From contig JACPMZ010000010.1 in assembly GCA_016185705.1 (NCBI GenBank), forward strand, positions 913 through 64,912: a stretch of DNA of 64,000 nt, read 5' to 3'. Source of the DNA: Candidatus Woesearchaeota archaeon. Its GTDB lineage: Archaea; Nanobdellota; Nanobdellia; Woesearchaeales; UBA10216. Position 1 is the first letter of the stretch. Every line of letters starts with the position of its first letter. The position numbers and the translations under genes were made by a program. Of this stretch, positions 5,289 to 61,173 are shown in pieces. Below the pieces are notes generated by a model. That model had not been told where the DNA came from. It searched no databases and saw nothing but the letters and a program-made list of their open reading frames with translations.

Positions 5289-5633
5289 GCCAGCAACTCC
5301 TTAAAACGACGATATAAATGTTTTTGTTTTTTTGGTGATGTCAAGTTGCGCATCAGCCTTTCTGACATTTCAATTGCTGCCAGCTGCTTCCCTCCCCATA
5401 ATACAGTGCAGTATCCCTGCATGCGCATGCTTTTCTCCCAAGCTTCCTTTTTCCCTCCCTCGCCTTTGCGAAGCCAGGGAAAAAGGAAGGCAAAGATGCT
5501 GCGGAGAGTCTGGTTTTAATTGAGGGAAAAAACAGCGCAGTTGCTCAGTAAGCACGCTGCTGATGCCTGTATGGCAGTCAACCCACTCGCCACTGGACAT
5601 ATGGCGGAAAGCTATATAAAGAAGTAAGTTAAT

Positions 5634-6452
5634 TTGCTTTGGATGGCAGGAATTATCAGCGTAACTGACCTTTGCTCCTTTAAGTTTTGCGAGCGTGGGC
5701 TGTACATTAAGAAAGTTCTTGGATTCAGGGAGCCGGTTAAGCCGGTCATGGTGCTGGGCAGCATCAGGCACAAGGTGTATGATGATGCCAACAAGAAAGA
5801 GGAAGAACTCATTTCCCAGATTACATCTGACCTTAAACGCAATGAGGTGCTGCAGATGTTTGCCAACGCTTACAACGGGATTCTTAACAAAAGCATAGTC
5901 AGCTTTTCTCAGCAGCTTAGGGATTTAAACATGGACCTGAACGAAGTTACAGTGAATATGCACGAAGCCGTTGCCTCGCAGGCAGCTTCGCGGGCTGATG
6001 AAATCATCAGTTTTTCTTCCAAAAATAATGTGTTCGGTGAGCAGTTGTGGCAGCAGCTTACTCCAAAGATTATTTCTGAGCTTAAGGTCAGTTCTGAAAA
6101 ATTAAGATTAAAAGGCGTTATTGACCGCATTGAGGACCGCGGCTCTGAGTACGTTCCTGTTGAAATCAAGACCGGCCGTGCGCCAAATGAGGGCGTCTGG
6201 CCTGACCACCGGCTGCAGCTTTCTGCGTATGCGATGCTTCTTAGGGAAGAGCTTAAATTCAACATCAAAGAGTGCCTCGTCAAGTACGTTGCCGCTGACC
6301 AGACGCGGCAGGTTGTCATGAATCCCTTCATGGAGTACGAAGTTACCGAAACTGTTAACAGCGTTTTCCAGCTGCTGGGGCAGAATGAAATTCCTGACGT
6401 GTGCGGCAAGAGCTACTGCATTTGGCTAAGAACCCCTATCATAAACCGCTAA
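5634..6452 (+). CDS. cas4: Cas4-like PD-(D/E)XK nuclease (DUF83), solo
   Basis: N-terminal FCERGLY resembles the YCPRKLY box. Has EIK (VPVEIKTGR) and QxxxY (QLSAY) RecB motifs. C-terminal CGKSYC Cys cluster. No cas genes or CRISPR nearby. Confidence 0.6.
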   Translation: MLWMAGIISVTDLCSFKFCERGLYIKKVLGFREPVKPVMVLGSIRHKVYDDANKKEEELISQITSDLKRNEVLQMFANAYNGILNKSIVSFSQQLRDLNMDLNEVTVNMHEAVASQAASRADEIISFSSKNNVFGEQLWQQLTPKIISELKVSSEKLRLKGVIDRIEDRGSEYVPVEIKTGRAPNEGVWPDHRLQLSAYAMLLREELKFNIKECLVKYVAADQTRQVVMNPFMEYEVTETVNSVFQLLGQNEIPDVCGKSYCIWLRTPIINR

Positions 6453-6584
6453 AAGTGGCTTGAATGATTCCTGTTTAATTCTTTATTCCGCGTTCGGTTT
6501 TTTTCATGCAGCGCAAGGAAGCCATTGGAAACTTTACAATACAACTTAAAAAGTTTTATATAATGTTAGGTGTTGCCGGTTATC

Positions 6585-7646
6585 ATGCCATTCGACATTG
6601 ATTATTTGCTTGCTTTCCGGCTCTGGAACAATTCAGGCCAGGATTATCTGGCAGCTTTAATCATGGTTGCCGTCGGCATTATGGCTCTGAAGCTGTTCAA
6701 GAGAGTTGTCATGCGCCGGCTTAAGAAGCTGGCTTCCCGCACTTCTGCTGACATTGATGACTTCATTATTGGCATTCTTGACCAGCTCCACTGGCCGCTG
6801 TATTTTCTTATCTCAGTTTACATTGCATCGCAGACACTGGCGCTGCCGCAGTTTGTTAACAAGGTATTTGGCTATGCCTTGGTTATAGGCGTAACCTATT
6901 ATATTGTCCGAGTTCTTGCTGCCCTGCTTGACTACGCCACTTCCAAATTGGTTGCCGTGCGTGAAAGGGAAGATAAGCACGAGGCGCAGGTAATTAGAAC
7001 CCTGTCGCGCATCGTCAAGGGCGTAATATGGGCTGTCGCAATTTTGATGGTTATTTCCAATCTGGGCTACAACGTCACCACGCTCGTAGCCGGCCTCGGC
7101 ATTGGCGGCTTGGCTGTTGCGTTTGCTTTGCAGAAAATTCTTGAGGACATTTTCAGCTCAATCTCTATTTATTTTGACAAGCCGTTCCAGGTTGGCGATT
7201 TCATCATTGTTGGCGAGCATCTTGGCGTTGTCAAGAAGATTGGAATAAAAAGCACCCGCATCCAGGCATTGCAGGGCGAGGAAATAGTCATCTCCAACCG
7301 CGAGCTCACCTCTACCAGAATCCAGAACTTCAAGCAGATGCAGAAGCGCAGGGTTGTTTTTGATTTTGGCGTTACCTACAGCACCTCAAATGCGAAGCTG
7401 CAGAAAGCTGCTCAAATAGTGAAGGATGTTGTTGAAAAAGCAAAGCTCGCTGAGCTTGACCGCGTTCATTTCAAGGAATTTGGCGATTTTAGCTTAAATT
7501 TTGAGGTTGTGTACTATCTGAAGTCAAAGGAGTACAACGACTACATGGACACGCAGCAGGAAATCAATCTGGGCATTAAGGAGCGCTTTGAAAAGGAGAA
7601 GATTGAGTTTGCCTACCCCACCCAGACTGTTTATGTTACAAAATAA
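6585..7646 (+). CDS. mscS: Small-conductance mechanosensitive channel MscS family
   Basis: TM segments followed by the MscS beta domain (PFQVGDFIIVGEHLGVVKKIGIKSTRI). TATA-like TTTTATATAA about 25 nt upstream of ATG 6585. The ORF track starts at GTG 6570. Confidence 0.8.
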   Translation: MPFDIDYLLAFRLWNNSGQDYLAALIMVAVGIMALKLFKRVVMRRLKKLASRTSADIDDFIIGILDQLHWPLYFLISVYIASQTLALPQFVNKVFGYALVIGVTYYIVRVLAALLDYATSKLVAVREREDKHEAQVIRTLSRIVKGVIWAVAILMVISNLGYNVTTLVAGLGIGGLAVAFALQKILEDIFSSISIYFDKPFQVGDFIIVGEHLGVVKKIGIKSTRIQALQGEEIVISNRELTSTRIQNFKQMQKRRVVFDFGVTYSTSNAKLQKAAQIVKDVVEKAKLAELDRVHFKEFGDFSLNFEVVYYLKSKEYNDYMDTQQEINLGIKERFEKEKIEFAYPTQTVYVTK

Positions 7647-7658
7647 GGTGTTTGCAAA

Positions 7659-8219
7659 ATGCTTGCAGATTTATTGTTGCCGCTGGCAGTCATTGCAATT
7701 GCCGAGATTGGGGACAAAACGCAGCTTGCTATGATGTCAATGGCTGCCAGGTACGGGCACACCCTCCAGATATTTTTCGGGGCTATGGTTGCATCTGCGC
7801 TTGTTGACGGTTCTGCGGTCGTCTTTGGAAGCTATGTTGCCAGATTCATCCCGGTAAATGTGCTGCTTGTGGCTTCAGGGCTGATTTTCGTTGCCGTAGG
7901 CGTTTTCACGCTCATCAGGCGGGAGGAGGAAAGCGTAAAAATGAAGGGCAGAAAGTCTGTGTTTCTAATGGCGTTTTCCCTTTTTTTCGTAAGCGAGTTT
8001 GGAGACAAGTCGCAGGTGGCAGCGTTTTTATTTGGAGCAAACTACAATGTTTTTCTTGCCTTTCTCGGAGCTGTTGCAGGCATAGCAATTGTTCTTTCTC
8101 TTATGCTTCTCATCGGGAAGCTCATAAGAAGGCGCCTTAATGAGAAAATCGTTAGGATTGCATCATCGCTTCTTTTCCTCATATTAGGAGTTCTGACCCT
8201 TGCTAAGGCATTGGCATAG
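7659..8219 (+). CDS. GDT1/TMEM165 (UPF0016) family cation/H+ antiporter
   Basis: Two E-x-G-D-K-(T/S) motifs (EIGDKTQLA and EFGDKSQVA) in a 6-TM protein. Confidence 0.8.
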
Positions 8220-8230
8220 CTGCTGCTGCC

Positions 8231-9673: not shown

Positions 9674-9682
9674 GGTGAAAGA

Positions 9683-11268: not shown

Positions 11269-11372
11269 TATTTCTATCCTCAATAGAAACTATTGTCTAT
11301 TGGCAATAGAAACAGTTAAATACATTGCGTGGCATGGCCATATTGTAAAAGTTCATGTGCTCCCGATGTTTT

Positions 11373-11436
11373 GCTAAGCTGCCCTGATTTTCCCTTCCCT
11401 AAATATTTAGGGAGGTTAAAATCAGGGCAGCTTAGC
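11373..11436. repeat. Near-perfect 64-nt palindrome/hairpin of the GGGAGG-core family
   Basis: gctaagctgccctgatttt-CCCTTCCCTAAATATTTAGGGAGG-ttaaaatcagggcagcttagc. Lies between convergent genes. Confidence 0.8.
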
Positions 11437-11518
11437 GGCAGTGGCGAATGCAACTTTTCAATACGACCGCGGTTATGGCTTTTGTGTGCTGACAGGCCTT
11501 CGCTAAGTCAGCTGTTTT

Positions 11519-11646
11519 TTATTCTCCAGTGCATGTTTGGTTATTTCCAGGCTGCAGCTGTTATATTTTTTGCAGTATTCCCTGCACTGCTTCGCAAGCT
11601 CCTCTGTTTCATAATGGAAGCTGCATATGTGGCACTGGTATATCAT
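11519..11646 (-). CDS. Mini zinc-ribbon protein (42 aa), paralog 1
   Basis: MIYQCHICSFHYETEELAKQCREYCKKYNSCSLEITKHALENK. RBS AAAGGTGGA upstream. 3' half nearly identical to 12423..12567. Confidence 0.5.
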
Positions 11647-11830: not shown

Positions 11831-12214
11831 TCAAAAAAGCATGACATTTTCATCTTTTGGAAAATCAGCGTCAAATGTTATAAGAACCGCCTTCTCCTGC
11901 ATGGCTGTTGCAAGGTGCAGCGCGTCCGCTATCCCGAACTTCGGGTGTTTGCTGCGGATTTCCTTTTTAAGCCGGGCAGCCTCCAGCGCTATCCACTCAG
12001 TGATGGGGATGATTGCTGCCCTGCTTTTAATGAATTTTAAGCTCGTATCAAACTTTTGGTTTTCGCGCTGGAACTTGTCAGCCAGTTCAACTATGGCGAT
12101 TACCGAGGTTGCTGCCACGTCATGCTCTATCATTTGCCTAACCTTTTCCCCTTTGCCTGTGCCTCCAAGGTATTCGGCCCATGCAGAGCTCTCAATCACG
12201 TATTTATAGCCCAT
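11831..12214 (-). CDS. vapC: PIN-domain toxin VapC
   Basis: 127 aa with PIN acidic residues. Overlaps the upstream antitoxin ORF. Confidence 0.75.
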   Translation of the reverse strand: MGYKYVIESSAWAEYLGGTGKGEKVRQMIEHDVAATSVIAIVELADKFQRENQKFDTSLKFIKSRAAIIPITEWIALEAARLKKEIRSKHPKFGIADALHLATAMQEKAVLITFDADFPKDENVMLF

Positions 12215-12401
12215 TGAATTCAGCCCTGTCCTTCCCTTTCCACCTGAGGCCCTTCACAGCCCCGAACATTGAAACAGGCACTGCCGCATGCTGCCTCAAT
12301 AGCTGCTGAATCACCTGGTCATGGGTTCTTATGCGCTTCTTTTCCTTTAGGAGTTCCAGCATCTGCTTTGTTGTTCCCGAAACCTGTATTGTAGTCGCCA
12401 T
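12204..12401 (-). CDS. vapB: VapB-type antitoxin
   Basis: 65 aa, overlaps vapC by 11 nt in the typical TA arrangement. Confidence 0.6.
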   Translation of the reverse strand: MATTIQVSGTTKQMLELLKEKKRIRTHDQVIQQLLRQHAAVPVSMFGAVKGLRWKGKDRAEFNGL

Positions 12402-12422
12402 AGTTACAGTTATAACTATAAC

Positions 12423-12567
12423 TATATAAAAAGTTTTCTGTTTTCCAGCGCATGCTTCGTTATTTCCAGGCTGCAGCTGTTATATTTTTTGCAGTATTCC
12501 CTGCATTGCTTCGCCCATTTTTCTTCCTTGTAGCGGAATCCGCATATGGGGCATTGGTATGTTTTCA
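12423..12567 (-). CDS. Mini zinc-ribbon protein (48 aa), paralog 2
   Basis: GTG start with RBS GAGGTGAT. (M)KTYQCPICGFRYKEEKWAKQCREYCKKYNSCSLEITKHALENRKLFI. Lies 5 nt downstream of the ccdA stop. Confidence 0.5.
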
Positions 12568-12572
12568 CGTTA

Positions 12573-21070: not shown

Positions 21071-21202
21071 ATGATGAAAGAGGTGGTGCGCTTGGCCTGT
21101 GAGGTTTGCATTGAGGGAGAGAAGGGCAGAATCTGCATTGACATCTGTAAATTCATGGAGACAGGCAGGATGGAGTGCAGGTTCAGGGAAAGGCTACTTT
21201 GA
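21071..21202 (+). CDS. Small Cys-rich protein (43 aa), hypothetical
   Basis: [43 protein letters not shown]. Weak RBS. Overlaps the copA 3' end. Confidence 0.25.
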
Positions 21203-23788
21203 TGCGTCAAAGTAGCCTTTTGCCCTGTAACTTTTCATGAGCAGCGAGTTGCTCAGCACGCTCACTGAGCTGAATGCCATGGCAATCCCTGCTATTATCG
21301 GATTCAGCAAAAAGCCTGTGAACGGGAACAGGATGCCTGCTGCTATCGGGATTCCTGCGGTGTTGTAAAAGAATGCCCAGAAGAGGTTCTGCTTGATTTT
21401 TTTCAGGGCGTAATTGCTCAAATCAATGGCTGTAACTACGTCTCTTAAGTCGTTTTTCACCAAAACAACATCGCCTGTCTCTATCGCCACGTCTGTGCCG
21501 GAGCCGATAGCTATTCCAATATCTGCCTGCGCAAGCGCAGGCGCATCATTTATGCCGTCTCCAACCATTGCCACTTTCAGCCCTTTTTCCTGCAGCTTCT
21601 TTATCTCGTTTTCCTTCTCTTCCGGAAGCACTTCCGCAAGCACTTCGTCTATTCCGAGCTGTCTTGCAATGGCTGCTGCTGTTTTCCTGTTATCGCCTGT
21701 TATCATCATTACTTTTTTTCCCATTTTGTGCAGCTGCTCAACTGCTTCTTTTGAATAGTCTTTTATCGTATCAGCTACAGCTATCACTCCGGATATTTTC
21801 TTCCCTGTGGCTACGAGCATTACTGTTTTGCCTGCTTTCTCAAGCTTTTGTATGGAGCTCTCAGCGTTTTTTGTGTCAATGCTGAACTGTTCCATCAGCT
21901 TTCTGTTGCCTACGAGAATTTTTTTCCCGTTTGAGACTGCTGTCACGCCTTTTCCGGTAACAGAGTTGAAGTTTGTGATTCGCAGCAGCTTTAGCTCTTT
22001 CTTTTCAGCGGCTTTTACAATAGCCGTGCTTAACGGGTGCTCTGATTTTTTTTCAACAGCTGCTGCCAGTTTCAGTATTTCATTCCTGCTGCCGTTGAAT
22101 GCTGCCACTTCAGTTACTTCAGGCGTCCCTTTTGTAAGCGTCCCTGTCTTGTCAAAGATTATTGTGTCAACTTTTCCTGTTTTCTGCAGCGCCTCTGCAG
22201 TCTTGAAAAGTATCCCGTTTTGCGCTCCTATCCCTGAGCCGACCATTATTGCTGTTGGCGTTGCCAGGCCAAGGGCGCATGGGCAGGCAATTATAAGAAC
22301 TGCAATAAATATCGTAAGGGCAAAAACAAAGCCAAAGCCGAGCGCATACCATAATAAGAACGAAATTATGCCGATAACGACCACTGCCGGGACAAAGTAT
22401 GAGGAGATTGCGTCTGCAAGTTTCTGGATGGGCGCTTTGCTTCCCTGCGCCTCCTCGACAAGCTTTATTATCTGGGCAAGGACAGTGTCTTTTCCTACTT
22501 TCGTTGCCCTGAATGTAAAGCTGCCTGTCTTGTTTATTGATGCTCCGACAACGCTGCTGCCTTTTGCTTTCTCTACAGGGATGCTCTCCCCTGTAACCAT
22601 TGACTCGTCAACAGAGGAGTGGCCTTCAACAATAACTCCGTCAACAGGGATTTTCTGGCCTGGCTTGACTATAACTGCATCCCCCACAGCTACTTCATCA
22701 ACATTTACTTCAACCTCTTTTCCTTTCCTCAGAACAATTGCCTTTTTTGCCTGCAGTCCGAGAAGCTTCTTTATCGCTTCTGAAGTTCTGCCCCTTGCAA
22801 CTGCTTCCAGGTATCTGCCAAGCAAAATGAACATTATCAGCAGCCCTGCAATTTCGTAATAGAGGCTGCTGTGGCCGTAGTCTGCATTGCCGCTCCATAT
22901 GATGGCTGACACGGCAAGGCTGTAAAGGTATGCTGCTCCTGTTCCGGCTGCTATGAGCGTGTCCATGTTTGCAGTTCTGGTGCGTATAACTGCGGAAATC
23001 CCCTTGGTGAAGAATTCGTAGCCTGCAAGCATTATCGGGGTTGTGAGGAGGAACTGGATTAAGGCAATGTTTTCCTCAGCAAATGCAGGTATTGGCATGC
23101 CGAATGCTGAGCCCATGGCAAAGTAAAGCAGCGGCAGCCCCAAAACAGCAGAAATCAGAAGCTTGATTTTCAGTATCCTTGTCTCTTTTTCTCTGGCTGC
23201 TTTTTCAGCATCCAAATCCTCGCTGAATTTTTCCGGCTCATAGCCCGCATTTCTTATCGTTTTCATTATTTTTTCAAGCGTGACTTGTTTTGGCTCATAA
23301 TTCACTACAGCCCGTTCAATGGCAAAACTGGCGTCCACTTTCAGCACTCCAGGCTGCTTTTTCAGGGCTGATTCAACGATTCCTGCGCAGTGCTGCGAGG
23401 ACATGCCTCTCACTTTCAGGGCAACTTCAGCGGCTTTTCCGGCAGGCGCTTTTATGACTTCGTAGCCGCTTTTCTTCACCGCATCCTCCAGCGCCGCATC
23501 GCTGACTTTTGAGCCGTCGTATTCAACAGAAGCTTTTTCAGAGGCATAATTTACGCTGGCGCTGATGACTCCGGGAATTTTTTTAATCTCTTTCTCAATT
23601 TTCACAGCGCAGGAAGCGCAGTGCATTCCCTTCAGGGGCAGTATTTTTTTGGTTGCCGCCCTTTTTCCAAGAAAGCTGTCGTAGCACTGTTTGCTGCAAA
23701 AAAAGTATTTCTTCCCGTTCTTTGCGGCAGAAAACCTGGCTTTTTTATCGTCAACTTCCATTCCGCACACAGGGTCTTTCGCGCTCAT
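21194..23788 (-). CDS. copA: Copper-translocating P1B-type ATPase with N-terminal YHS/TRASH and two HMA domains
   Basis: DPVCGMEV...C..C (YHS/TRASH), [12 protein letters not shown] and [11 protein letters not shown] (HMA), CPC, DKTGT, GDGIND. Confidence 0.9.
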
Positions 23789-23941: not shown

Positions 23942-23990
23942 TTGCTATTTAGCAAATCCCGCAAAAGTTCAAAAATTATCGGGATTTGCT
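23942..23990. promoter_or_regulatory. Palindromes in the putative cop promoter (TTGCTATTTAGCAA; gcaaatcccg/cgggatttgc; ATTTGCTATT x2)
   Basis: Dyad symmetry lying just upstream of the mini-TRASH start (its first codon is complement 23929..23927) and downstream of the ATP-cone gene. Confidence 0.35.
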
Positions 23991-24010
23991 ATTATAAAGT
24001 CCATCAACAG

Positions 24011-24308: not shown

Positions 24309-25019
24309 TTAGCCGAAGTTGATTGTTCCGTTTGCTATCAGCATGAGCAGGAAGCCCATGGAAATCAGCAGCAGGCCTACAATAAGCCGCATGAATCCGC
24401 GGTAGTCCTGTTTCCATTTTTTAACCTTGTAAAGTTTGGTTCCTGTGGCTACAAGCATTAGTATGACTATCAGGGGCGCTACAAATATTATGTTGTACAG
24501 TATAAGCAGCATGAAAGCAGTAAAGTCAAAATACTGCGATAAGAGGGTTATGATCGCAAGGTACGGCGCGCCTGTGCATGGAAGCTCAACCACAGACACA
24601 AATGCGCCAAGGAGAATTATTCCGGGCACGGTTGTTTTTGAAGCGTGCTGATGCATCCTTTTTGCAAAGACCGAAGGAATTTGCAAAGAAAACCATTTTC
24701 CATACCAAAAATAGTCTTTAATCTCAATCAGCCCGGCAATTATTATTATCAGCCCAACGGCTATTGACAGGTATTCTGTCAAGTACAGGGGTATGCTTGA
24801 AAAAAGATATACAAGCCCGAGGCCTGCTATCAGATAAACTGCAAACACAGCCAATATGTATAAGCTGCCCAGTGCAAGCATGCGCTTCATGGAGCTTTTT
24901 CCGGCAAGCAGAACAGAAATCATTAAGATTAAAACTCCTATTGCGCAAGGATTAATTGAGTCAATGACTGCTGTAATCACTACAGTTCCTAACGCGGGAA
25001 GATATGCTTCAACTGCCAC
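24309..25019 (-). CDS. ccdA: CcdA/DsbD-family membrane thiol-disulfide transporter, second copy
   Basis: NPCAIGVL and ELPCTGAPYL motifs in a polytopic membrane protein. Confidence 0.75.
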   Translation of the reverse strand: MAVEAYLPALGTVVITAVIDSINPCAIGVLILMISVLLAGKSSMKRMLALGSLYILAVFAVYLIAGLGLVYLFSSIPLYLTEYLSIAVGLIIIIAGLIEIKDYFWYGKWFSLQIPSVFAKRMHQHASKTTVPGIILLGAFVSVVELPCTGAPYLAIITLLSQYFDFTAFMLLILYNIIFVAPLIVILMLVATGTKLYKVKKWKQDYRGFMRLIVGLLLISMGFLLMLIANGTINFG

Positions 25020-25926
25020 TCAGTTCACCCCTTGCAGCAGCCAGCCGGTATGTTTCGCATATGTTTTCTGTAGAATCCTTTTCCTCACCAAATTCCACAA
25101 TTATGCAGTCTCCTGGAGGAACGTTTGGCTCCGGGGATAAAACATAATTTTCAAAATCATCCGGTTTTATCTGCTCGTAAACCCATTTTTTCCGCTGGTC
25201 AGGATTCTTGACCTTGTACAGGAATACCTGTAGTTTCCCCTGCTTTCCGTCGCACAAGTCGCCATTTGCCATCTCAACCAGCCCTTCATTTGTAGGAATT
25301 GACATGGAATCAGCATTAAGTTCAGCTCCGATAACATGGAAAAAATTGTGCAGGGCAACATCTCCATCATCAACAACAACGCCTTCCACGTGAATGCGGT
25401 TATCGCCGTGCTCATGGAAAGTGGAAGATCCTACTCTGTTCTCAAATCCGTGAGGGTCGGTCAAATCAAGCTTTTCTCCGCAATTGTATATTTCAAAATC
25501 CGCATGCCAATGGACCGGCCCTTTGGTCTGTGAAGCCAGGTTAAGATAGATGGTGGAGCCTGCTGTGTAAGCTGCTGCTGATACAGTAACAAGCACTATC
25601 AAAGAGAACAGAACCATCTTTATGGAGTTGCTGTTCTTCATAGTCTTAGTGCCGAAAGTGGCCATTAATATCAGAATCGCAATAACTGACAAGGCATATG
25701 CCACGACCTTTAGCGTGCTTAGCTTGACAGATTCCTCCAGTCCTGCAGATACAGACTCCTCAGCATGCTCTTCATCTGAGTGTTCATCTCCCTCCTGATG
25801 TTCGGAAACCGCTTCATCGCTGTGCGCTGATGCTGCGATTAATACCATCAGGAAAATAAGCGGAAAAAGCAGTATTTTTATGAAGCTGAAATGGTTCATT
25901 GCCGCAGCAGAATTTCCATACACCAC
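25009..25926 (-). CDS. Membrane-anchored protein with an acidic His-rich stretch plus the novel His/Cys extracytoplasmic domain
   Basis: SDEAVSEHQEGDEHSDEEHAEE, then VHWHADFEIY...FHEHGD...C...C. Overlaps ccdA2 by 11 nt. Confidence 0.65.
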   Translation of the reverse strand: MVYGNSAAAMNHFSFIKILLFPLIFLMVLIAASAHSDEAVSEHQEGDEHSDEEHAEESVSAGLEESVKLSTLKVVAYALSVIAILILMATFGTKTMKNSNSIKMVLFSLIVLVTVSAAAYTAGSTIYLNLASQTKGPVHWHADFEIYNCGEKLDLTDPHGFENRVGSSTFHEHGDNRIHVEGVVVDDGDVALHNFFHVIGAELNADSMSIPTNEGLVEMANGDLCDGKQGKLQVFLYKVKNPDQRKKWVYEQIKPDDFENYVLSPEPNVPPGDCIIVEFGEEKDSTENICETYRLAAARGELSGS

Positions 25927-26387
25927 TTTTGCACCCTGTAGCTGAATAACCGTGAATAACTAAAGGTAAGGGGACTTTATAAAAGTACCGATTTTAGGTA
26001 ATTTCAAGTTAAGTGGCAAAACCATCGCACACTGCTCTGATTTTTTTCTCCCCCCTTAAAAAATAAGGGGGGAGAAAAAAATCAGCCAAGCAGGCATCGG
26101 CAAGCTCAGGATTGCAGGACACACAACTTGACATTATCCGATTTTATGCAGCAGTAGTGGTTTATAGAAGTAGTGCCGGCATTTGCAGTGGTGTTTGCAG
26201 CATTCTATGCTGTATCTTGGAGTGCCTGGCGTTTGCTGCCTGACCAATCCTTTAAAGCTGGATGCTGAGTTATAGGAAATAACCTTGATTTTCGTATGTT
26301 TTGAAATGATTGTAAGGTTATTTCCTAATAAGCAAATCACTTATTCGTTAGGAACAAAATTCCGATTATTAAAGTGATTTGCTATAA

Positions 26388-32692: not shown

Positions 32693-32777
32693 GCTGTGCT
32701 GATAAGCTTCCCCAACGTGTTGTTAAGTTTTCGGCTGTTACCAAATACTTTAAGCAAACGATAATGCGCAGTAGTAG

Positions 32778-32815
32778 CAGATGCAGCTCAAAGCCAAAAC
32801 ACTGCCGCCCGCAGA
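32778..32815. repeat. 35-bp direct repeat GCTCAAAGCCAAAACACTGCCGCCCGCAGATT, copy 1 (70 bp upstream of the dsbA-like gene)
   Basis: Second copy at 34360..34396 with one mismatch. Confidence 0.8.
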
Positions 32816-32883
32816 TTTAACAGAACGCATTTACGGAAAACTTTTTAAAGAAAAAGCGCATCGCGCACAAAGGGTGATAACTG

Positions 32884-34323: not shown

Positions 34324-34359
34324 GATAAGAAAAGCTCATGTGTACGTTGCGCTGCTACT

Positions 34360-34396
34360 GCTCAAAGCCAAAACACTGCCGCCCGCAGATTGAACA
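34360..34396. repeat. 35-bp direct repeat, copy 2 (just downstream of the CPGC membrane gene and upstream of the cupredoxin gene)
   Basis: Matches 32778..32812. Confidence 0.8.
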
Positions 34397-34410
34397 ATAA
34401 GCTACAATAG

Positions 34411-34553
34411 GCCTTATTGAAACGTTCACGCAGCCTCACTCTGTTGCTGGCTTCCCTTCCTGCTTTTTCCCTCCCTTAAATATTCAGGGGAGGGAAAAAG
34501 CAGGAAGAACGGCGGGATAAACGCAGCGGTAAAGTGAACTTTTCAATAGCACC
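34411..34553. repeat. Copy A of a ~142-bp intergenic element containing the GGGAGGG-core hairpin (34456..34507)
   Basis: About 96% identical to 61032..61173. Confidence 0.85.
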
Positions 34554-34609
34554 CTCCAACAGAAAGAAATAAATAAGAGTTGGAACCTTTGCCAGTGAAA
34601 GAGGTTAAA

Positions 34610-36876: not shown

Positions 36877-36999
36877 AGTGCAGCCACGCGCCGCTTCTCT
36901 TTTGCATCAGCCATTTCCACTTTTACCCTCCCTTAACTTTTAAGGGAGGGTAAAAGTGGAAAGCGGTGGAAAACAAGCGCGGCGAAATCAAAAAGAATT

Positions 37000-38124
37000 T
37001 CAGATTAAATGCTTTACCAGCACGTTCTGCGTTATTGAGCGCTGCGCGTAGTAGTCAAGCTCTACATTGAATGTTTTGACGCTGTCTATTTTGCTGTTTT
37101 CGTCAAGCGTCTGGATGCACGTGAAGGTCGCTTTGCCGTCTATCAATAATAGTTCGCCGCTTATGGGGCTGTTTCCTGTTAGTCCTACGCAGTTTAGTCC
37201 TGATGTTTGTGCTAATAATTCAATTCTTGCATTTCTGAGTCTGTCCCGTCTTGATTGGAGTGTATCATATGATGCCTCAAGGCCGACTAAAAATTTAGCA
37301 TCCTCTAATTCCTTTTCAGCTGCAGTGGCATCTATTCCAGCAAGCTTAATTCCTGTATCAACCAGTACATTAATTCTGTCTTTATTCCTGAAGTCTGTGC
37401 TGCATTTTTCTCCTTTGCTGTCTGCTGTTGGCTTGAAAACCTCATCAGGCCCTACTTTGGTTATTTCAAAGTTGAATATTATTTTGTCTGCCCCGCCTAC
37501 GCTTTGGGATACTTTGGTTATGTGCACCGGCGCGCCTGAGTTGCTGACTGCTCTTTCTCCTGACGGATTGCACACTTCGTTTACAGCGTCAGTGAAGTCT
37601 TCCTGCAGGCACATCTGGGATGCTGCGGCTGTTTTGTATCTGTAGCATGCCTCTGCTTTGAATGGGAACTGCTGGTTTCCTTTGAGCGTTTCCCTGTACA
37701 GGAACCTGTCAGAATCTGCCGGCCATCGATCCGCAACAGGAAATGTGAATGGCTGCAAATCCCCTCTTATCAGATTGCCGCTTGGGTCCCGCTGAACTCC
37801 AAGAAGCTGCTGGTTGTTGCTTTGCTTGAGCTGCTTATTTCTGTCTTCAACTGAAAAATCGTTGGGGAAGAATCCTGTCATTTCCATTTCCAGCTCGCCT
37901 GCAGGTATTGTGTGCTCGCCGACGTTTGACACTGTTACAACCGCCAGAAAAGGAAATCCTCGGCCGTCTCCGAAATCAGTCACTTCCAGCGGCGGAGTGT
38001 TTGGAAGGTAAGCTAATCTTAGCCCTTCTTTGCCTCCTGTGAATTCGCTGGTTGTGCTTTCTCCGCCGGGAAGGCATGCTGAAGCGGCAATAACCAAAAA
38101 CAGAATTCCGTAAATGGCTTTCAT
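37000..38124 (-). CDS. Secreted lipoprotein, paralog A of a three-member family
   Basis: Signal plus lipobox AASAC. Conserved EACYRYKTAAASQMCLQED...CNPSGERAVSNSGAPVHITKV. Confidence 0.6.
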   Translation of the reverse strand: MKAIYGILFLVIAASACLPGGESTTSEFTGGKEGLRLAYLPNTPPLEVTDFGDGRGFPFLAVVTVSNVGEHTIPAGELEMEMTGFFPNDFSVEDRNKQLKQSNNQQLLGVQRDPSGNLIRGDLQPFTFPVADRWPADSDRFLYRETLKGNQQFPFKAEACYRYKTAAASQMCLQEDFTDAVNEVCNPSGERAVSNSGAPVHITKVSQSVGGADKIIFNFEITKVGPDEVFKPTADSKGEKCSTDFRNKDRINVLVDTGIKLAGIDATAAEKELEDAKFLVGLEASYDTLQSRRDRLRNARIELLAQTSGLNCVGLTGNSPISGELLLIDGKATFTCIQTLDENSKIDSVKTFNVELDYYAQRSITQNVLVKHLI

Positions 38125-44110: not shown

Positions 44111-44278
44111 GGGTAATCCTCTTTTATCTGCTTGCCTTCAGTTTTCCTTTTATTGATACTTAAAGGTTTCTAAACAGGGGTGCTTTCAACTTTTGCGCGT
44201 TCCGCTGCCCGCTTCTTATTCCCTCCCTCGCAATTTAAGGGAGGGAATAAGAAGCGGGCGCAGGCTATCAAAAAATGC

Positions 44279-44917
44279 TTAACTTGACTTTGCCATAATT
44301 GCAGAAATGGCCTCCACAGATTCCTTCGCATTCGCCGTGTACATGCCTAATGCGAGAAGCAGTGATTTGAGGTCATGCGGCGAGCGCATTTCATATGGCT
44401 CAGAGGTTAAGCTTGCTATCGCTGTTTTTACTTTGTACTTTTTTGTCAGCTTTATGTTCTGCCGCACCCTGCCAAGCAGTAATGGCAGATTCTTTGCATT
44501 GAGCATTGCTGAGAAGCTGAACGCCACTACGACGTCATTATCCCTTGCAAACTGGCATGTTCCTTTGTCCAGCCCCGAATTTCTGGTTTTGGCAAAGTCT
44601 TTTCTCACTCCAAGCTCCAGATTATAAACTATGTTTGGCTTGTACTTGGCTATGATGTCCCGCGCTCCTTCAGCAGCTTCTGTTATTACGATTTCTTTGC
44701 TGTCGTGCGCTTTGTAGATTTTTGCGCCGCTCACCCTGAATACTGCCTGCAGCTTTATCTTGGTGGTTTTTTGCAGTTCCTGCACGCTGCTTTTAATTTT
44801 TTCAGCTGTGTTTTTGTCATAATCATACGCGAACAGAATGCCCTGAATGCCCAGCTTTTCAGCTACCGGGATGAAATCCTTTTCGTTGTTTTTCGGAAAT
44901 ATTATGTCGTAAAACAT
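44279..44917 (-). CDS. Possible RNase P protein component Rpp30 (TIM-barrel family)
   Basis: The C-terminal IASLTSEPYEMRSPHDLKSLLLALGM resembles the Rpp30 ISSAAERPLEIRGPYDVANLGLLFGL region. Confidence 0.4.
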   Translation of the reverse strand: MFYDIIFPKNNEKDFIPVAEKLGIQGILFAYDYDKNTAEKIKSSVQELQKTTKIKLQAVFRVSGAKIYKAHDSKEIVITEAAEGARDIIAKYKPNIVYNLELGVRKDFAKTRNSGLDKGTCQFARDNDVVVAFSFSAMLNAKNLPLLLGRVRQNIKLTKKYKVKTAIASLTSEPYEMRSPHDLKSLLLALGMYTANAKESVEAISAIMAKSS

Positions 44918-45031
44918 GTGCTAGCTGTATTTGGTTTTTATTTAAATTTATGTGTTAGCAACTTGCACGACAGAAAAGCGAAACATTTATATATGTTTAC
45001 GATTACTTAATAACGTAAACAAGTGGTTAAA

Positions 45032-45340
45032 ATGTCAGAAAACGTTGCTGCAAGGATATCTGAATCAGTAGCTGGTGATATAGATTTTGTTGCTAAGGAA
45101 GAGGCAACTGATAAATCAACTGTTATAAGGGAACTGCTTTCCAGTGCTGTCAAGCAAAAATTGGTCGATTTGGCATTGGATAAATATTCGAAACGTCTTG
45201 TTTCTCTTGGAAGGGCTGCTGAACTTGCAAAAATACCTTTAGCAGATTTCATGGTTGTAGCTGCTGAAAGAAAGATGCCCATGAATTATTCGGTCAAATC
45301 ACTTGAGAAAGATTTTGCTGCAGCTATGAAGGCAAAATGA
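45032..45340 (+). CDS. UPF0175-family antitoxin-like protein
   Basis: About 100 aa. Paired with, and overlapping, the downstream DUF3368/PIN-like gene. Confidence 0.5.
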   Translation: MSENVAARISESVAGDIDFVAKEEATDKSTVIRELLSSAVKQKLVDLALDKYSKRLVSLGRAAELAKIPLADFMVVAAERKMPMNYSVKSLEKDFAAAMKAK

Positions 45341-45825
45341 TAGTTTCCAATTCTTCTCCATTAATAAGTCTGGGAAAGCAAGGAATTCTTTATCTTCTTA
45401 GGAAATGCTTTGATAAAGTTGCCATTCCACATGCAGTTTATGAAGAAATCTCAAGGAAGAAGGATAGTCCAGAGTGTGCAAGGTTGCAGCAAGCTATAAG
45501 AGAAAAATGGATAGTGGTTAGAAAGGTTTCAATAAACCCCTTATTAGTAACTGAGAAGCTGGGTAATGGTGAAAAAGAAGCTATATCTTTGGCATCCAAA
45601 ATGAAATATTTACTTCTAATAGACGATGACTATGCAAAAACATATGCTTCCTTGTTAAATGTAGAGGCGCATGGATTAATCTACGTTATTTACCGCTCAT
45701 ATTCAAAAAGATTTATAGATAAAAAGAAAGCAGTAAGTCTTGTTGACCAAATGGTTGCAGCTGGATTCTATCTCTCAACAGAAACTTATGCAAAGTTCTT
45801 GGATTTGCTTAATGGATCAAAATGA
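45337..45825 (+). CDS. DUF3368/PIN-like predicted nucleic-acid-binding protein (toxin-like)
   Basis: 162 aa. ATGA overlap with the upstream gene. The region is distinctly AT-rich. Confidence 0.5.
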   Translation: MIVSNSSPLISLGKQGILYLLRKCFDKVAIPHAVYEEISRKKDSPECARLQQAIREKWIVVRKVSINPLLVTEKLGNGEKEAISLASKMKYLLLIDDDYAKTYASLLNVEAHGLIYVIYRSYSKRFIDKKKAVSLVDQMVAAGFYLSTETYAKFLDLLNGSK

Positions 45826-56795: not shown

Positions 56796-56962
56796 CACAC
56801 CTCCTTGGAATGCATCTTTCAGTTCTGGCGCTTTATTTCCGCCTCCCTAACTTTCGAAGGGAGGTGGAAATAAAGCGCGGTGTGAGATGCTGTAGATTAG
56901 AGGATGAAATTGGGGAACAGGCAGCCGCACGTACAGGCATCGGACGCCATAATTGCAGTGTT

Positions 56963-57241
56963 TTACCGCGCCAGAAAGCTTAATACGGATTTCTGCAGCA
57001 GCCATACTGCCAGAACGTAAACAAATAGCGTGTGCAGCCCGAACACAGCCATTGCCAGTATGTACAGCGCTGTTATGAAGTCTCCGAAGCTTGCAAAATC
57101 CTTGGGAAATGCTAATGCTTTGCCTGCCAGGTAAACGGCAAATCCAATCCCCAGTCTTGCTCCAATCAGGTCAAAGTGCAGCAGCAGCATTCCTGCAGCT
57201 GCCAGCAGGTCCAGCGCTCCAAGCACCCACAGAACGACCAT
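56963..57241 (-). CDS. Small membrane protein, hypothetical
   Basis: 92 aa, three TM segments. Confidence 0.4.
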   Translation of the reverse strand: MVVLWVLGALDLLAAAGMLLLHFDLIGARLGIGFAVYLAGKALAFPKDFASFGDFITALYILAMAVFGLHTLFVYVLAVWLLQKSVLSFLAR

Positions 57242-57242
57242 C

Positions 57243-57542
57243 TTACATTATCCCGAGTTCCATCTTTGCTTCTTCTGTCATTTTGTCAGGGCTCCACATC
57301 GGCTCCCAGACTATGTCTACTGTTACGCCTGTTACTCCGCTGATTTTTTTGACTTTTTCCTCAACCGCATCCAGAATCAATGGCCCTACAGGGCATGCGG
57401 GGCTTGTCAGCGTCATTTTTATTACAACCATGCTGCCGTCAATAGCAACATCATACACGAGCCCGAGGTCTACTATGTTTATGTGCATCTCAGGGTCTGT
57501 CACTTCCTTCAGTTTTTCCATGACGGTTTCTTTGGTTGGCAT
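57243..57542 (-). CDS. DUF59/SufT (MIP18-family) Fe-S assembly protein
   Basis: PEMHINIVDLGLVY...TSPACP motif. Confidence 0.7.
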   Translation of the reverse strand: MPTKETVMEKLKEVTDPEMHINIVDLGLVYDVAIDGSMVVIKMTLTSPACPVGPLILDAVEEKVKKISGVTGVTVDIVWEPMWSPDKMTEEAKMELGIM

Positions 57543-57615
57543 GGAATTAGGAATGTTTGGTGATTTAAAAAGGTTGGTGTAATGTTTTTATAATAGAATA
57601 TCTTGCCGTTTCCCT

Positions 57616-58920
57616 ATGGCAGGAATAAAAAGTCGGGAGGAAGTGGCAACGCTTGTTAAAAAAGTTCAGCCCTCAGGCATAAGGGAAATGCTGGAGCCCA
57701 AAATGAATTCAGCAGGGAATAAAACTTGGCGGGATTTTCAGAATAACAGCAACAAAGTTTTGGAAGAATTAATAGGGCTTGGCGTAATTGTTAAGCCGGA
57801 TTTGAAGTTGCCTGCTGGCTGGCATCAGTATAGTTATGAGAAGGGCGGCCTTTTCCCTGCTCCTCCTGAATATGCAGGGCTTGAGCAGCCATACAGGGAT
57901 TCGTGGAAGAGATTTATGGATGCCGTTTTGGAATTAAAGCCGGAGCAGGTGCTTTACATCAGCGAGGAAAATAATCTTTGGCCTTTTATTCCAAGAAGAA
58001 GACTTTCAAAGCGGCATAACCTGGTTTCTGCTCCGCGGTTTGACAGTCTGGATAGGATTGACAAATTATCTGTGCATGCCTTGGCTGTGCGGCTGGGCGA
58101 GACCCGTATTGGCGATATTTTTGTTGGAATGGATTTTCAGGGGGTGCAGCATACGGGCAGGGAGTACAGGGTTTTCCATATTTCAGATATTTTCAGGGGC
58201 CAGCTGATGGATGAGGTTTTACCGAGAAGGATTGGCGACGATTGGCTTGGAGAAGTTGCCTTTTATGCTGATTCCCCGGATATTTGGAGCATGGGGCTGG
58301 AGGCATTGGTTAAAAATATCCCTTCACTGGGCTCTCCCGGCGATGCAGTTGATGTAGAGCTGCACCACGTGCCTCTCGTGCATGTTTCCCAGTTGAAGAA
58401 GGGCATTGTAACGGTTGATCCATCAGCGCGCGCGATTAGCTACAATTTCAGGGCTACAGACCCCTGCGAGAAAAGAAAGTGGATGATTAAATACGGCAGA
58501 GGGCAGGTTTTCGGTAAGTCTGACAGGAAGGGTGACGAGTTGTGGCTGGATCATCACGTTGTATTCGCCTATAGCAGGATGAGAAGGTTTGCGGATTGGC
58601 TCAGGGAGGGTGAAGCTGATCCTGGCAGGCGCTTTGTTATTCTGCCGATGTTTCCATCTCCGGCAAAGGAAGAAACCAAAGAAGGATTCAGAAAGATGTA
58701 CGGCACAAAAACCGAAGAAGGTGTTATTGGAGGTGTTGTTGTTGATGCCCGCCTGCCTGTTGGCCAGTTTGGCCATAGGCTGGACAGGCATTCGCTGAGC
58801 GAGCGTCTTGTTGACTTGGACATTGCATTGCATAACCTGGTTGCTGTTACTGCTGACTCCATGAGGCCGGAGGGCCACAGAATTGTGTATTCAAAAAGTG
58901 CTAAGGCGCTTCCTGTGTAA
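57616..58920 (+). CDS. Large hypothetical protein (434 aa), no recognised domain
   Basis: Long ORF with coding-like composition and no motif I recognise. Confidence 0.45.
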   Translation: MAGIKSREEVATLVKKVQPSGIREMLEPKMNSAGNKTWRDFQNNSNKVLEELIGLGVIVKPDLKLPAGWHQYSYEKGGLFPAPPEYAGLEQPYRDSWKRFMDAVLELKPEQVLYISEENNLWPFIPRRRLSKRHNLVSAPRFDSLDRIDKLSVHALAVRLGETRIGDIFVGMDFQGVQHTGREYRVFHISDIFRGQLMDEVLPRRIGDDWLGEVAFYADSPDIWSMGLEALVKNIPSLGSPGDAVDVELHHVPLVHVSQLKKGIVTVDPSARAISYNFRATDPCEKRKWMIKYGRGQVFGKSDRKGDELWLDHHVVFAYSRMRRFADWLREGEADPGRRFVILPMFPSPAKEETKEGFRKMYGTKTEEGVIGGVVVDARLPVGQFGHRLDRHSLSERLVDLDIALHNLVAVTADSMRPEGHRIVYSKSAKALPV

Positions 58921-59164
58921 TGGCAGAAGCTGTCTGCGGCATCTCTTCGCCGTAGCTTGGCACTGCTGACTTGGAAATGATTATTACGTCTCCGACTGAT
59001 TTTATGAGCTGGTGGGGCACTATTACGCCTTTTGCGCTGCCTAAGAGCTTGCTTAATGCGCTTGTTTTGGTTGCCTTCACTCTCCATGCGGTTATCTTTG
59101 TTTTTGTCATTACTGCTTCTTCCACGTCTCCAAAGTAGTCTCCGGAGTCTGTGAATACCTTCAT
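58901..59164 (-). CDS. PRC-barrel-like small protein
   Basis: MKVFTDSGDYFGDVEEAVM... The longer 112-aa ORF in the track is a possible N-extension. Confidence 0.35.
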   Translation of the reverse strand: MKVFTDSGDYFGDVEEAVMTKTKITAWRVKATKTSALSKLLGSAKGVIVPHQLIKSVGDVIIISKSAVPSYGEEMPQTASAITQEAP

Positions 59165-59331
59165 GGAATATATGTCTGTAATCCTTTTGAGTTTTAGCAT
59201 GAACGCCCTGCATGGGTTCGTGTATTTAAAGTTTTTCATGGATTGCTGAATCTTTGGCGCTGTTTATCGTCAGCAGTCAGTGGCAAAACAGCAGAAGAAG
59301 TTTTTTAAACAGTTAAATAAGGCTATTCTCC

Positions 59332-60030
59332 ATGGAGAACCTGAGGATTATAGGCACATCCCATATAGCGGCGGAGAGTGTTGATGCAGTTAATAAGTAC
59401 ATTAAGGATGCGCAGCCGGATATTGTTGCCATTGAGCTTGACCGCAGGCGCGCCAATGCTTTGCTGCACGGCCAGAAGAGCAGGCTTTCTCCTAAGCTGA
59501 TAAAAGTTATTGGCGTTAAGGGCTTTTTGTTCATGGCAATAGCTGCTTTTCTTCAGCGGAAGCTCGGCAATATTGTGGGAGTTGAGCCTGGCTCTGAGAT
59601 GAAAGCAGCCCTTACATCTGCCATTAAATCCGGGGCAAGGGTTGCGCTGATTGACAGGCACATTGAGGTTACGATGAAGCGCCTCTCCCAGACTTTGACG
59701 TGGAAGGAGCGCTTCAGGTTTGTTATGGATATTTTCTCTGGCTTTTCGGGCGAAATGAAAGAGCTTGGAAGCGTTGATTTGCGCAAAGTGCCTGCAAAAA
59801 AAATTATTGACAAAGTGCTGCAGCGCCTGAAAAATCATTACCCCAATCTTTACAAAGTTTTGGTGGAAGAAAGAAACGAGCACATGGCTGCTGCTCTTGC
59901 AGATATAATGCATAAGAATCCTGACAGCAAAATTCTTGCAGTTGTCGGCGCAGGCCATGAGGAGGAGCTTGCTAATCTTGTAAAGAGGAATTACGGGGAA
60001 AGCTCCGGTTATAGTTTTAGTGCTGGGTAA
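59332..60030 (+). CDS. TraB/GumN-family protein
   Basis: IIGTSHIAAESV...VAIELD...AVVGAGH pattern. Confidence 0.7.
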   Translation: MENLRIIGTSHIAAESVDAVNKYIKDAQPDIVAIELDRRRANALLHGQKSRLSPKLIKVIGVKGFLFMAIAAFLQRKLGNIVGVEPGSEMKAALTSAIKSGARVALIDRHIEVTMKRLSQTLTWKERFRFVMDIFSGFSGEMKELGSVDLRKVPAKKIIDKVLQRLKNHYPNLYKVLVEERNEHMAAALADIMHKNPDSKILAVVGAGHEEELANLVKRNYGESSGYSFSAG

Positions 60031-60099
60031 CCTTCCGTTTCTTTGCCCGCTTGGGTGCATAGCGAAGCATTTAAAAACGCTGTTCCCGATTAAGCAGCC

Positions 60100-60855
60100 A
60101 TGGTTTATGGTTTTTATGAGTGGATGGCTCGCGTCAGGAAGTACGCTCCCTTCAGCAGGAAGGAGCTTATGTGGATTGGGGTTAGCATTGTTGTTCTGGC
60201 GTTTATTGTTGGCTTTGACGACGGCAGCGAGGAGTTTAATCTTGCCCGGTACGTTTCCAACATGGTTCTGAGCGTGGTGGTGGTTGCTGTTGCTGTTTTG
60301 GTTCATGAGTCTGCCCACCGCATTGCAGGCCCCAACATGGGCTACCGCATTGAGTTCAGGCCTTTCTTCTTTGGGCTGATTGGAGGCCTTATTCTGTCGT
60401 TCATGTCTTACGGCAAGATTCTGTTCCTTGCTTACGGCAGCTTTTTCCTTGACATCAGGGAAAAGCACCGGCTCGGCTACTTCAGGCATTATCTTGGCTA
60501 TTTTGACAACGGCAAGGTTGCTGTTGCAGGCCCGCTGGCAAATCTGGCTGCTGCAATGGCTTTCAAGAGCATGGTTTTCCTGCCTGAGCTGCTGGTTGCG
60601 AAGCTTGTTTTCATTAACGTGCTTTTCGCTGTTACAAACATGCTGCCCATTCCTCCACTTGACGGCTCGCATGTGATGTATGCTTCCCGCCATCTTTATC
60701 CTTTCACAATGGCTGCTATCATTGGGGCTGCTGTTCTGCTGCTTATTCCCGAGGTTAAGTGGTGGATGTCTATTCTGGGAGCATTGGTAATTGGCGTAGC
60801 TTACTCATTTATTTACTTCCACTACATAGAAAAGGCGTTTGGCAGCTGGGATTAA
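60100..60855 (+). CDS. Site-2 protease family (M50) membrane metalloprotease
   Basis: HESAHR (HExxH) and NMLPIPPLDG motifs in a polytopic protein. Confidence 0.7.
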   Translation: MVYGFYEWMARVRKYAPFSRKELMWIGVSIVVLAFIVGFDDGSEEFNLARYVSNMVLSVVVVAVAVLVHESAHRIAGPNMGYRIEFRPFFFGLIGGLILSFMSYGKILFLAYGSFFLDIREKHRLGYFRHYLGYFDNGKVAVAGPLANLAAAMAFKSMVFLPELLVAKLVFINVLFAVTNMLPIPPLDGSHVMYASRHLYPFTMAAIIGAAVLLLIPEVKWWMSILGALVIGVAYSFIYFHYIEKAFGSWD

Positions 60856-61031
60856 GCTTCTGATGCTGCTTGCTCGCGGGGTGGTGTCAGCTTTTGCGTG
60901 TTTCGCTGATAGCTCTTTATTCCTTCTGTCTTCGCAGTTGCAATCAAACAGCAAACTATATGCGGGAGCAGATATGCGGCGTGCGCAGGCAGCAGGGTAA
61001 ACACGCTTAACTTGACATTGCCTGCTACGGA

Positions 61032-61173
61032 CCTTATTGAAAAGTTCGCGCAGCCTCGCTCTGTTGCTGGCTTCCCTTCTTGCTTTTTCCCTCCCTTAAA
61101 TATTCAGGGGAGGGAAAAAGCAGGAAGAACAGCGGGATAAACGCAGCGGTAAAGTGAACTTTTCAATAGCACC
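61032..61173. repeat. Copy B of the ~142-bp intergenic element (hairpin 61076..61127)
   Basis: About 96% identical to 34411..34553. The hairpin has a G-U-compatible substitution on the + strand. Confidence 0.85.

Follow-up and report, generated by a model that had tools for sequence, protein, structure and literature searches.

The Correia/NEMIS elements of Neisseria, the ERIC/IRU elements of enterobacteria, and the RUP/BOX elements of pneumococcus are non-coding, imperfect intergenic palindromes of ~100 to 150 bp. They are co-transcribed with their neighbors, may have terminator or promoter activity, and exist in many decayed copies; Correia elements duplicate TA. For the DPANN archaea, mobile elements and transcription signals are almost unstudied. 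Here, a 64,000-nucleotide (nt) stretch of a Candidatus Woesearchaeota archaeon (contig JACPMZ010000010.1, positions 913 to 64,912; "the window") was analyzed, in which an earlier note had named a family of eight intergenic hairpins at 5443, 11373, 26041 (26037 below), 34456, 36916 (36914 below), 44208 (44207 below), 56828, and 61076. [quoted passage not shown] They differ from them in the archaeal host, in their terminal inverted repeats (TIRs) and duplication length, in a T-run on the 5' side, and in a fixed distance to the B recognition element (BRE) and TATA box of a neighboring promoter.

In our best explanation, which we regard as moderately probable when taken as a whole, each hairpin is the central palindrome of an element, and the elements form a lineage-specific foldback MITE family of a groundwater Woesearchaeota genome, with a terminator/insulator role and promoter-biased insertion. 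Six of the eight hairpins lie inside foldback elements of 133 to 152 bp with ~20-bp TIRs of two related types, type A (GGnnnTATTGAAAAGTTC) and type B (GGCAATGTCAAGTTA; outward reading ...TAACTTGACATTGCC, its reverse complement). The flanks of 11373, 34456, and 61076 form the inverted repeats GGnnnTATTGAAAAGTTCAy ... rTGAACTTTTCAATAnnnCC, and the resulting foldback structures of 133 to 145 nt have folding energies of -70 to -74 kcal/mol (z about -8). Outward-facing TIR matches with at most 2 mismatches were found at 11373, 34456, and 61076 (type A) and at 5443, 26037, and 44207 (type B), against a background of ~0.016 per 130-nt arm. None of the five type-B matches in the window is farther than 110 nt from a hairpin: one is left of 5443, two bracket 26037, one is right of 44207, and one, an orphan, is beside the 61076 element; 1.95 would be expected anywhere in the window. 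Five copies are full, four of them in the window and one in a relative, L005; their two TIRs are identical at 14 to 16 of 20 positions, except in 61076, where identity is 9/20 ungapped owing to a 1-nt indel. At 5443 and 44207, the TIRs are one-sided.

Perfect 8-bp duplications (8/8) flank two elements, at 25989-25996/26139-26146 in the window and at 5870-5877/6030-6037 in L005, another Woesearchaeota metagenome-assembled genome (MAG). Imperfect duplications flank 34456 (6/8) and 61076 (7/8 with an indel), and the 3/8 agreement at 11373 is at chance level. The L005 element, 152 nt long (5878-6029) with the same ends, stands between tyrS and a cas4-like gene, and its perfect direct repeat is CATTGCTT. 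When this element and one duplication are taken out, L005 is colinear with the orthologous region 5' of tyrS in a further relative (L008) and in the window. Similarly, in two syntenic loci (L125/L126) only 82 nt lie upstream of the cupredoxin gene, compared with 256 nt in the window; the element is absent there, and the BRE/TATA is conserved. Taken together, the TIRs, the 8-bp duplications, and the empty orthologous sites argue that the six TIR-bearing copies are MITEs, an assignment that we consider quite likely.

The members and their surroundings in the window are as follows.

5334..5348: type-B TIR GGTGATGTCAAGTTG, left end of the 5443 element; outward lie 8 nt (5326-5333) and then the tyrS BRE/TATA (5310-5325).
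5443..5489: hairpin between the divergent tyrS and cas4-like genes; its core is degenerate and its stem is 14 bp long (CTTCCTTTTTCCCT / AGGGAAAAAGGAAG).
11336..11468: type-A copy, 133 bp, diverged TIRs (14/20), between a 6-phosphogluconolactonase-like gene and a 47-aa Zn-ribbon open reading frame (ORF), convergent.
11373-11436: central hairpin of the 11336 element, 32-nt arms with a 2x2 internal loop and one T-G.
25989..25996: left target-site duplication CGATTTTA, perfect 8 bp, abutting the BRE/TATA 25975-25988 (minus strand) of the gene 25009-25926.
25997..26138: type-B copy, 142 bp, TIRs 15/20 (GGTAATTTCAAGTTAAGT / reverse complement GATAATGTCAAGTTGTGT); hairpin 26037-26085 with a 22-bp perfect stem.
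26139..26146: right target-site duplication CGATTTTA.
34410..34553: type-A copy, 144 bp, TIRs 16/20, flanking 8-mers CTACAATA / CTCCAACA (6/8), hairpin 34456-34507; right end 8 nt from the BRE/TATA 34562-34575 of a cupredoxin-DoxX operon.
36914..36962: hairpin with a perfect stem of 23 bp; the stop codons of the convergent replication factor C (RFC) small-subunit gene and of gene 37000-38124 are each 37 nt away.
44207..44259: hairpin 19 nt 3' of the RNase P p30 gene (minus strand); its 22-bp stem is perfect.
44277..44294: type-B TIR bounding the 44207 element on the right (GCTTAACTTGACTTTGCC when read outward), encoding the last 5 codons and the stop of p30.
56828..56878: hairpin whose 21-bp stem includes one G-T; the convergent genes around it are an ABC-2 permease gene and a 92-aa membrane ORF.
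61005..61022: orphan type-B TIR remnant GCTTAACTTGACATTGCC, directly left of the 61029 type-A copy.
61029..61173: type-A copy, 145 bp, 93% identical to 34410-34553, hairpin 61076-61127 with one T-G; flanking repeat CTGCTAC / CTGCTTAC; right end 8 nt from the BRE/TATA 61182-61195.

The p30 C-termini of relatives diverge exactly at the type-B TIR 44277-44294, so the insertion apparently replaced the tail of the gene. The hairpins 34456 and 61076 lie within a 164-nt repeat at unrelated loci, and since its copies are 93% identical, they are not independent members of the family. With six TIR-bearing copies in 64 kb, and copies or remnants in L005, L008 (a truncated copy), and L124 (a left-end remnant), the family extends to several relatives. 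A profile built from four full copies recovered every copy, and ~1.6 Mb of other sequence gave no comparable match. The elements are non-coding and shorter than 500 bp, and no ORF is consistent across copies. By-eye TIR similarity at the left of 44207 and at 36914 was rejected after failing a shuffle test (p = 0.08-0.9); nhmmer matches for 36914, the left of 44207, and 56828 were dominated by the hairpin itself, and 36914 shows a weak extended palindrome only. In the older copies 36914 and 56828, the hairpin is intact and the terminal repeats are decayed or gone.

Other repeats adjoin two of the copies. A 46-nt intergenic direct repeat (32777-32822 / 34351-34396, 89% identical), absent from all fetched relatives, has one copy just left of the 34410 element, and repeated CAATAGAAAC / TTTCTATTG motifs occupy 11275-11320, 3' of the 6-phosphogluconolactonase-like gene and beside the 11336 element. 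Logan unitigs of the same strain (SRR12113383-430; L117-L123, L128-L131) start or stop at or near hairpins and repeats (~5412, 34524, 61145), so these repeats fragment short-read assemblies of this organism. Exact-protein look-ups gave only short Logan unitigs identical to the window, in which the hairpins show no strain variation; look-ups with the full-length RFC ORF, P0002, and window 61217-61555 returned no record.

The host is a DPANN archaeon. The window encodes the RFC small subunit, RNase P p30, a Hef-type helicase-nuclease, TyrRS, and a Cas4-like nuclease, and its RFC small subunit is 100% identical to the protein MBI2664671.1 (Candidatus Woesearchaeota archaeon). The nearest species representatives by RFC are Woesearchaeota MAGs at ≤75% identity, and most relatives are without such hairpins.

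All eight hairpins were found where the earlier note had placed them, either exactly or to within 2 to 4 nt (some stems run 2 to 4 nt longer). The stems measure 14 to 32 nt, with 0 to 3 imperfections. As RNA, the hairpins have folding energies of -25 to -47 kcal/mol, near-equal for both strands. A chance origin is excluded. The window holds 8 hairpins with stems of at least 14 bp (≤1 mismatch), compared with 0 to 2 in 20 shuffles, and CCCTCCC-N3-30-GGGAGGG occurs 4 times versus 0.01 expected. When hairpins were classed by their 5' arm, 13 were pyrimidine-rich and 2 purine-rich, with 0 to 4 of each in shuffles. An Rfam search gave nothing at the gathering threshold; at E ≤ 1, it returned only generic miRNA-hairpin models with 25 to 37 bits against thresholds of 69 to 150.

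All eight are intergenic. When small ORFs are counted, the gaps are convergent at 11373, 36914, and 56828, tandem at 26037, 34456, 44207, and 61076, and divergent at 5443. As stated previously, seven lie downstream of a gene, and 5443, between the divergent tyrS and cas4-like genes, is the exception. Of ~6 usable convergent gaps in the window, three hold an element, and four further elements separate the end of one gene from the next promoter. The window's elements are located at the 3' ends of transcription units. A ninth hairpin (L128 5965-6027, CCCGCTGCTTTTTTCCCTCCCC...GGGGAGGTAAAAAGCAGCGGG) was found ~550 to 600 nt left of window position 1, 3' of an AAA-ATPase gene.

For the comparison of stems, pairs were tabulated from individual folds anchored at the junction of T-run and core, as a MAFFT/RNAalifold alignment had been out of register. 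The core had been taken as invariably CCCTCCC/GGGAGGG, which holds exactly for four of the eight hairpins (34456, 36916, 44208, and 61076). The other four deviate: 11373 has CCCTTCCC/GGGAGG, 26041 has CTCCCCCC/GGGGGGAG, 56828 has CGCCTCCC/GGGAGGTG, and in 5443 the motif is limited to the 5' arm, the 3' half being missing. Likewise, TTAA is present in five of the eight loops, not in every one. In the anchored folds, positions -5 to -1 are T-A and almost invariant, C-G or T-A pairs occupy positions 0 to +8, always with the pyrimidine contributed by the 5' arm, and each position from -6 outward shows 3 to 4 pair types. The claim that outer stems differ between copies and stay complementary is borne out by 11 non-duplicate hairpins, in which 68/68 outer-stem cells are Watson-Crick; in 75% of the cells of the variable outer stem, the pyrimidine is on the 5' arm (p = 4e-5). 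Between 11373 and 34456, which are homologous by their ends and arms, the outer stems differ by several double (compensatory) changes, and no pair is broken. A T4-7 run is present in the 5' arm of six of the eight copies, and the polarity of T-run, stem, and A-run is identical on either strand. Because the sequence is palindromic, the pyrimidine-rich 5' arm is a property of both strands, which makes the element functionally symmetric.

Whether this pairing reflects selection on RNA had been argued from G-U substitutions at 56828 and 61076. By direct reading, these substitutions are correct, and 11373 carries a third. All three wobbles favor the plus strand (3/3, p = 0.125), and when wobbles and strand folding energies are compared, the sense strand folds slightly better in 6/7 informative cases, which is suggestive only. 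The asymmetry is too weak to tell RNA-level selection from DNA-level processes, the G-U sample being too small and single-stranded DNA (ssDNA) tolerating G-T pairs too, and selection at the RNA level is therefore not established. A remark on Shine-Dalgarno-like and anti-Shine-Dalgarno-like sequences in the core found no support either, as no start codon follows any GGGAGGG. Solo copies of the heptamer outside hairpins number 6, with ~8 expected; an uptake-sequence role for the heptamer was discarded for this lack of excess.

The same slightly better folding of the sense strand would suit host-evolved, non-mobile RNA hairpins, i.e., local terminators or 3'-end stabilizers to which a common constraint, as in bacterial terminators, has given the same composition (U-run, C-rich stem). 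The supposed TIRs would then be promoter-upstream regulatory sites or unrelated neighbors. Such an origin agrees with outer stems that have no sequence in common and would cover the three to five copies without ends, the TIR being missing at 36914, 56828, and the ninth hairpin. It also agrees with the different hairpins at comparable 3' ends of relatives (3' of p30 in L125; convergent gaps in L124 and L125). In favor of our best explanation, in contrast, the same T-run/CT-rich design recurs in the convergent gaps of the nearest relatives, 3' of the gene after RFC (L125 13079-13119 and 13173-13220; L124 11531-11570). Non-mobile hairpins would not account for two elements bounded exactly by perfect 8-bp direct repeats, for TIRs that are paired and inverted even where one side only faces a promoter, for orthologous promoters of relatives without elements, or for the 93%-identical copies 34456/61076 at unrelated loci. 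Moreover, in ~530 kb of other, more distant Woesearchaeota loci, long GC-core hairpins are almost absent, which argues against a general terminator type of the lineage. We thus regard a non-mobile host origin as unlikely.

Repeated, palindromic, non-coding, and intergenic, the hairpins had also been called REP-like. That description comes close, and REP/BIME palindromes (repetitive extragenic palindromes and bacterial interspersed mosaic elements) with RAYT transposases are likewise short, intergenic, and located at gene 3' ends, with compensatory stem variation. Identity with REPs does not follow, since TIRs with 8-bp duplications are the mark of MITEs. REPs are without TIRs and duplications and have a conserved 5' tetranucleotide and hundreds of near-identical copies, and none of these REP features is seen here. 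In a REP/RAYT-like or IS200/IS605-derived palindrome, the hairpin would be the site of a Y1 (HUH) transposase on ssDNA and the core a protein contact, in line with a conserved hairpin top, a variable lower stem, and intergenic, multicopy occurrence. Against this, the 5' GTAG-type tetranucleotide is not conserved, the copies are not near-identical, TIRs with 8-bp duplications are a DDE-transposon signature, and neither a Y1 transposase nor TnpB was found in the window. IS200/IS605 elements are not known to make a target duplication. Three 405-aa ORFs were considered as TnpB and set aside as a subtilase, a metallophosphatase, and a protein without assigned family. In general, a REP or IS200/IS605 origin appears very improbable.

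Even less credible is a site for protein binding or recombination on double-stranded DNA (operator, cruciform target, attC-like cassette site). The palindromic symmetry, the CCCTCCC/GGGAGGG half-site pair conserved in four copies, and toxin-antitoxin genes nearby could be read in this way. Yet an operator explains neither a half-site spacing of 3 to 19 nt nor covarying outer stems; the neighbors are housekeeping genes (TyrRS, RFC, RNase P p30, Hef) and not cassettes, and the window has neither R''/R' attC core sites nor an integrase.

For the MITE family, a source among known transposons was sought in its ends. [quoted passage not shown] The TIR of IS26 is GGCACTGTTGCAAA (PMC8477213), and the type-A end, GGTGCTATTGAAAA, matches it at 10/14 positions. 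The elements share with IS6/IS26 the 8-bp duplication, GG-tipped TIRs of 15 to 20 bp (a GG tip at 13/14 ends), and internal T(G/A)T-T and (C/A)AAA motifs at the IS26 spacing. The motifs read CTATT/ATGTC and AAAA/CAAG, so that the match to cTGTt/caaa is partial, and no transposase is seen in the window. At 133 to 152 bp, the elements are also shorter than the 227- and 336-bp IS6 MITEs and, unlike them, are wholly palindromic with a long central hairpin. An rve-type IS seen in one relative (L127) was rejected as a partner, its TIRs being unrelated. We regard the elements as a new MITE family in a DPANN archaeon, probably IS6-related, with a conserved, terminator-like hairpin at the center and unusual promoter-adjacent insertion. 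A complete element would be a non-coding unit of 133 to 152 bp with ~20-bp TIRs of type A or B and an 8-bp target-site duplication; to mobilize it, a DDE transposase from another locus would have to act in trans.

The insertion sites have a common arrangement. Outward from the element end, a BRE/TATA-like sequence begins directly after 8 nt in six cases, four in the window and one each in L005 and L008; each line gives the TIR tip, the 8-mer, and the BRE/TATA.

34456 end: GCACC, CTCCAACA, GAAAGAAATAAATA.
61076 end: GCACC, TGCTTACA, GAAAGAATTTTATA.
5443 end: ATCACC, AAAAAAAC, AAAAACATTTATATCG (tyrS promoter).
26037 end: ATTACC, TAAAATCG, GTACTTTTATAAAG.
L005 end: GTGACC, AAGCAATG, AAAAGATTTATATCG.
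L008 end: TGACC, AACTACCA, GAAAGATTTATATT.

At 44207 and 11373, this arrangement is less marked. The boxes lie ~22 to 32 nt upstream of start codons or of a Shine-Dalgarno-led start, and because they are conserved at the orthologous promoters of element-less relatives, they can be assigned to the host. Insertion is strongly biased to one position, with the target duplication abutting the promoter BRE/TATA. Several of these intergenic regions offered 80 to 250 nt of other space, and a fixed spacing in at least five independent insertions argues for targeted insertion over mere tolerance. Integration might be directed by TBP/TFB-bound or bent DNA, for which the targeting of Pol III promoters by Ty3 would be a functional analogue. 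IS6 elements are not known for insertion beside promoters. Active targeting is possible, and we hold it with considerable doubt. The same reserve applies to a promoter-targeted archaeal MITE family, its 8-bp duplication abutting the BRE, in which each insertion would deliver a bidirectional hairpin terminator/insulator upstream of a promoter. At the divergent tyrS/cas4 locus, a tandem CACTGGACA just upstream of the TATA box of the cas4-like gene is conserved in four Woesearchaeota genomes (window 5585-5600, L005 6045-6064, L008 8567-8585, L004 7590-7650) and resembles a transcription-factor operator.

The earlier proposal of a terminator is plausible in the archaeal sense. Archaeal termination uses U-tracts and needs no hairpin (PMC8716108). 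By this sequence feature, the T4-T7 runs in six of eight 5' arms and the position of seven of eight hairpins 3' of a gene are suitable, and sense-strand T4-7 just 3' of genes in a pyrimidine-rich context resembles archaeal U-tract/aCPSF1-assisted terminators (PMC8716108). Unlike in those terminators, the U-tract here makes up the ascending side of a 20-bp stem and has its mirror image on the other strand. The bacterial model of a hairpin plus U-tail does not apply: on each strand, the T-run comes before the stem and the A-run after it, and the host belongs to the archaea. An intrinsic terminator of the bacterial kind was ruled out on these grounds. Bacterial bidirectional intrinsic terminators also place a symmetric hairpin with A/T runs on both sides between convergent genes, but the polarity here is reversed, with no U-tail 3' of the hairpin on either strand. 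On either strand, transcription would meet the U-tract in a pyrimidine-rich, weakly hybridizing stretch and then a very stable stem of 17 to 23 bp, and the element would insulate the upstream gene from the promoter that it lands beside. An orientation-independent terminator/insulator at the element center is thus a tenable but tentative proposal; if true, it would explain a perfectly paired hairpin in elements whose arms and TIRs decay.

Other gene ends carry hairpins without the pyrimidine/purine arm design (21189-21220, 23950-23991, 26273-26327, and 63818-63862), one example being AAAGGCTACTTTGA-tgcg-TCAAAGTAGCCTTT at the stop codon of a P-type ATPase gene. Core matches in viral contigs were dismissed as family members, being mostly ordinary CCCTCCC-tetraloop-GGGAGGG-T-tail terminators.

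Several points weigh against the explanation by a MITE family with terminator function. No transposase was found among the ~60 window ORFs scanned. Neither a TIR nor a target duplication was detected for 36914, 56828, the ninth hairpin, or the two L125 hairpins (L125a/b), which may form a separate, non-mobile class. Genome-wide scans yielded no further copies, with only ~65 kb of this genome covered. Oligo-T runs are not generally prominent 3' of other window genes, so U-tract termination is only putative for this organism. Template switching within palindromes, a DNA-level process, could keep the arms complementary without selection. Finally, the only grounds for the IS6 assignment, a lead and not proof, are short-motif similarity and duplication length. 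In other sequence collections, a metagenome scan for T-run, core, and A-run gave 7 matches, all from unrelated bacteria (44 to 64% GC) and none from this lineage, and viral-contig scans for paired type-A or type-B TIRs gave unrelated sequences only.

The window has further features of its own. Two paralogous CxxC...CxxxC mini-proteins of 47 to 48 aa are encoded at 11503-11646 and 12422-12568, both on the minus strand, within a 128-nt direct repeat (81% identical). A PIN/VapC-like gene with a 65-aa partner (11831-12401, minus strand) has a palindrome (12400-12425) at its upstream edge; the two probably form a toxin-antitoxin pair, the palindrome being the operator. Another pair (UPF0175 and DUF3368) lies at 45023-45825. 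No tRNA gene was detected by ARAGORN across window positions 1-64000.

If the elements are indeed promoter-targeted MITEs with a two-way stop, they would show how a selfish element can insert safely into a very compact genome. They would also offer a testable archaeal example of factor- or structure-guided integration, as well as candidate portable terminator/insulator parts. Were both the promoter-targeting and the terminator readings true, insertions would reshape the boundaries of transcription units in a streamlined DPANN genome.

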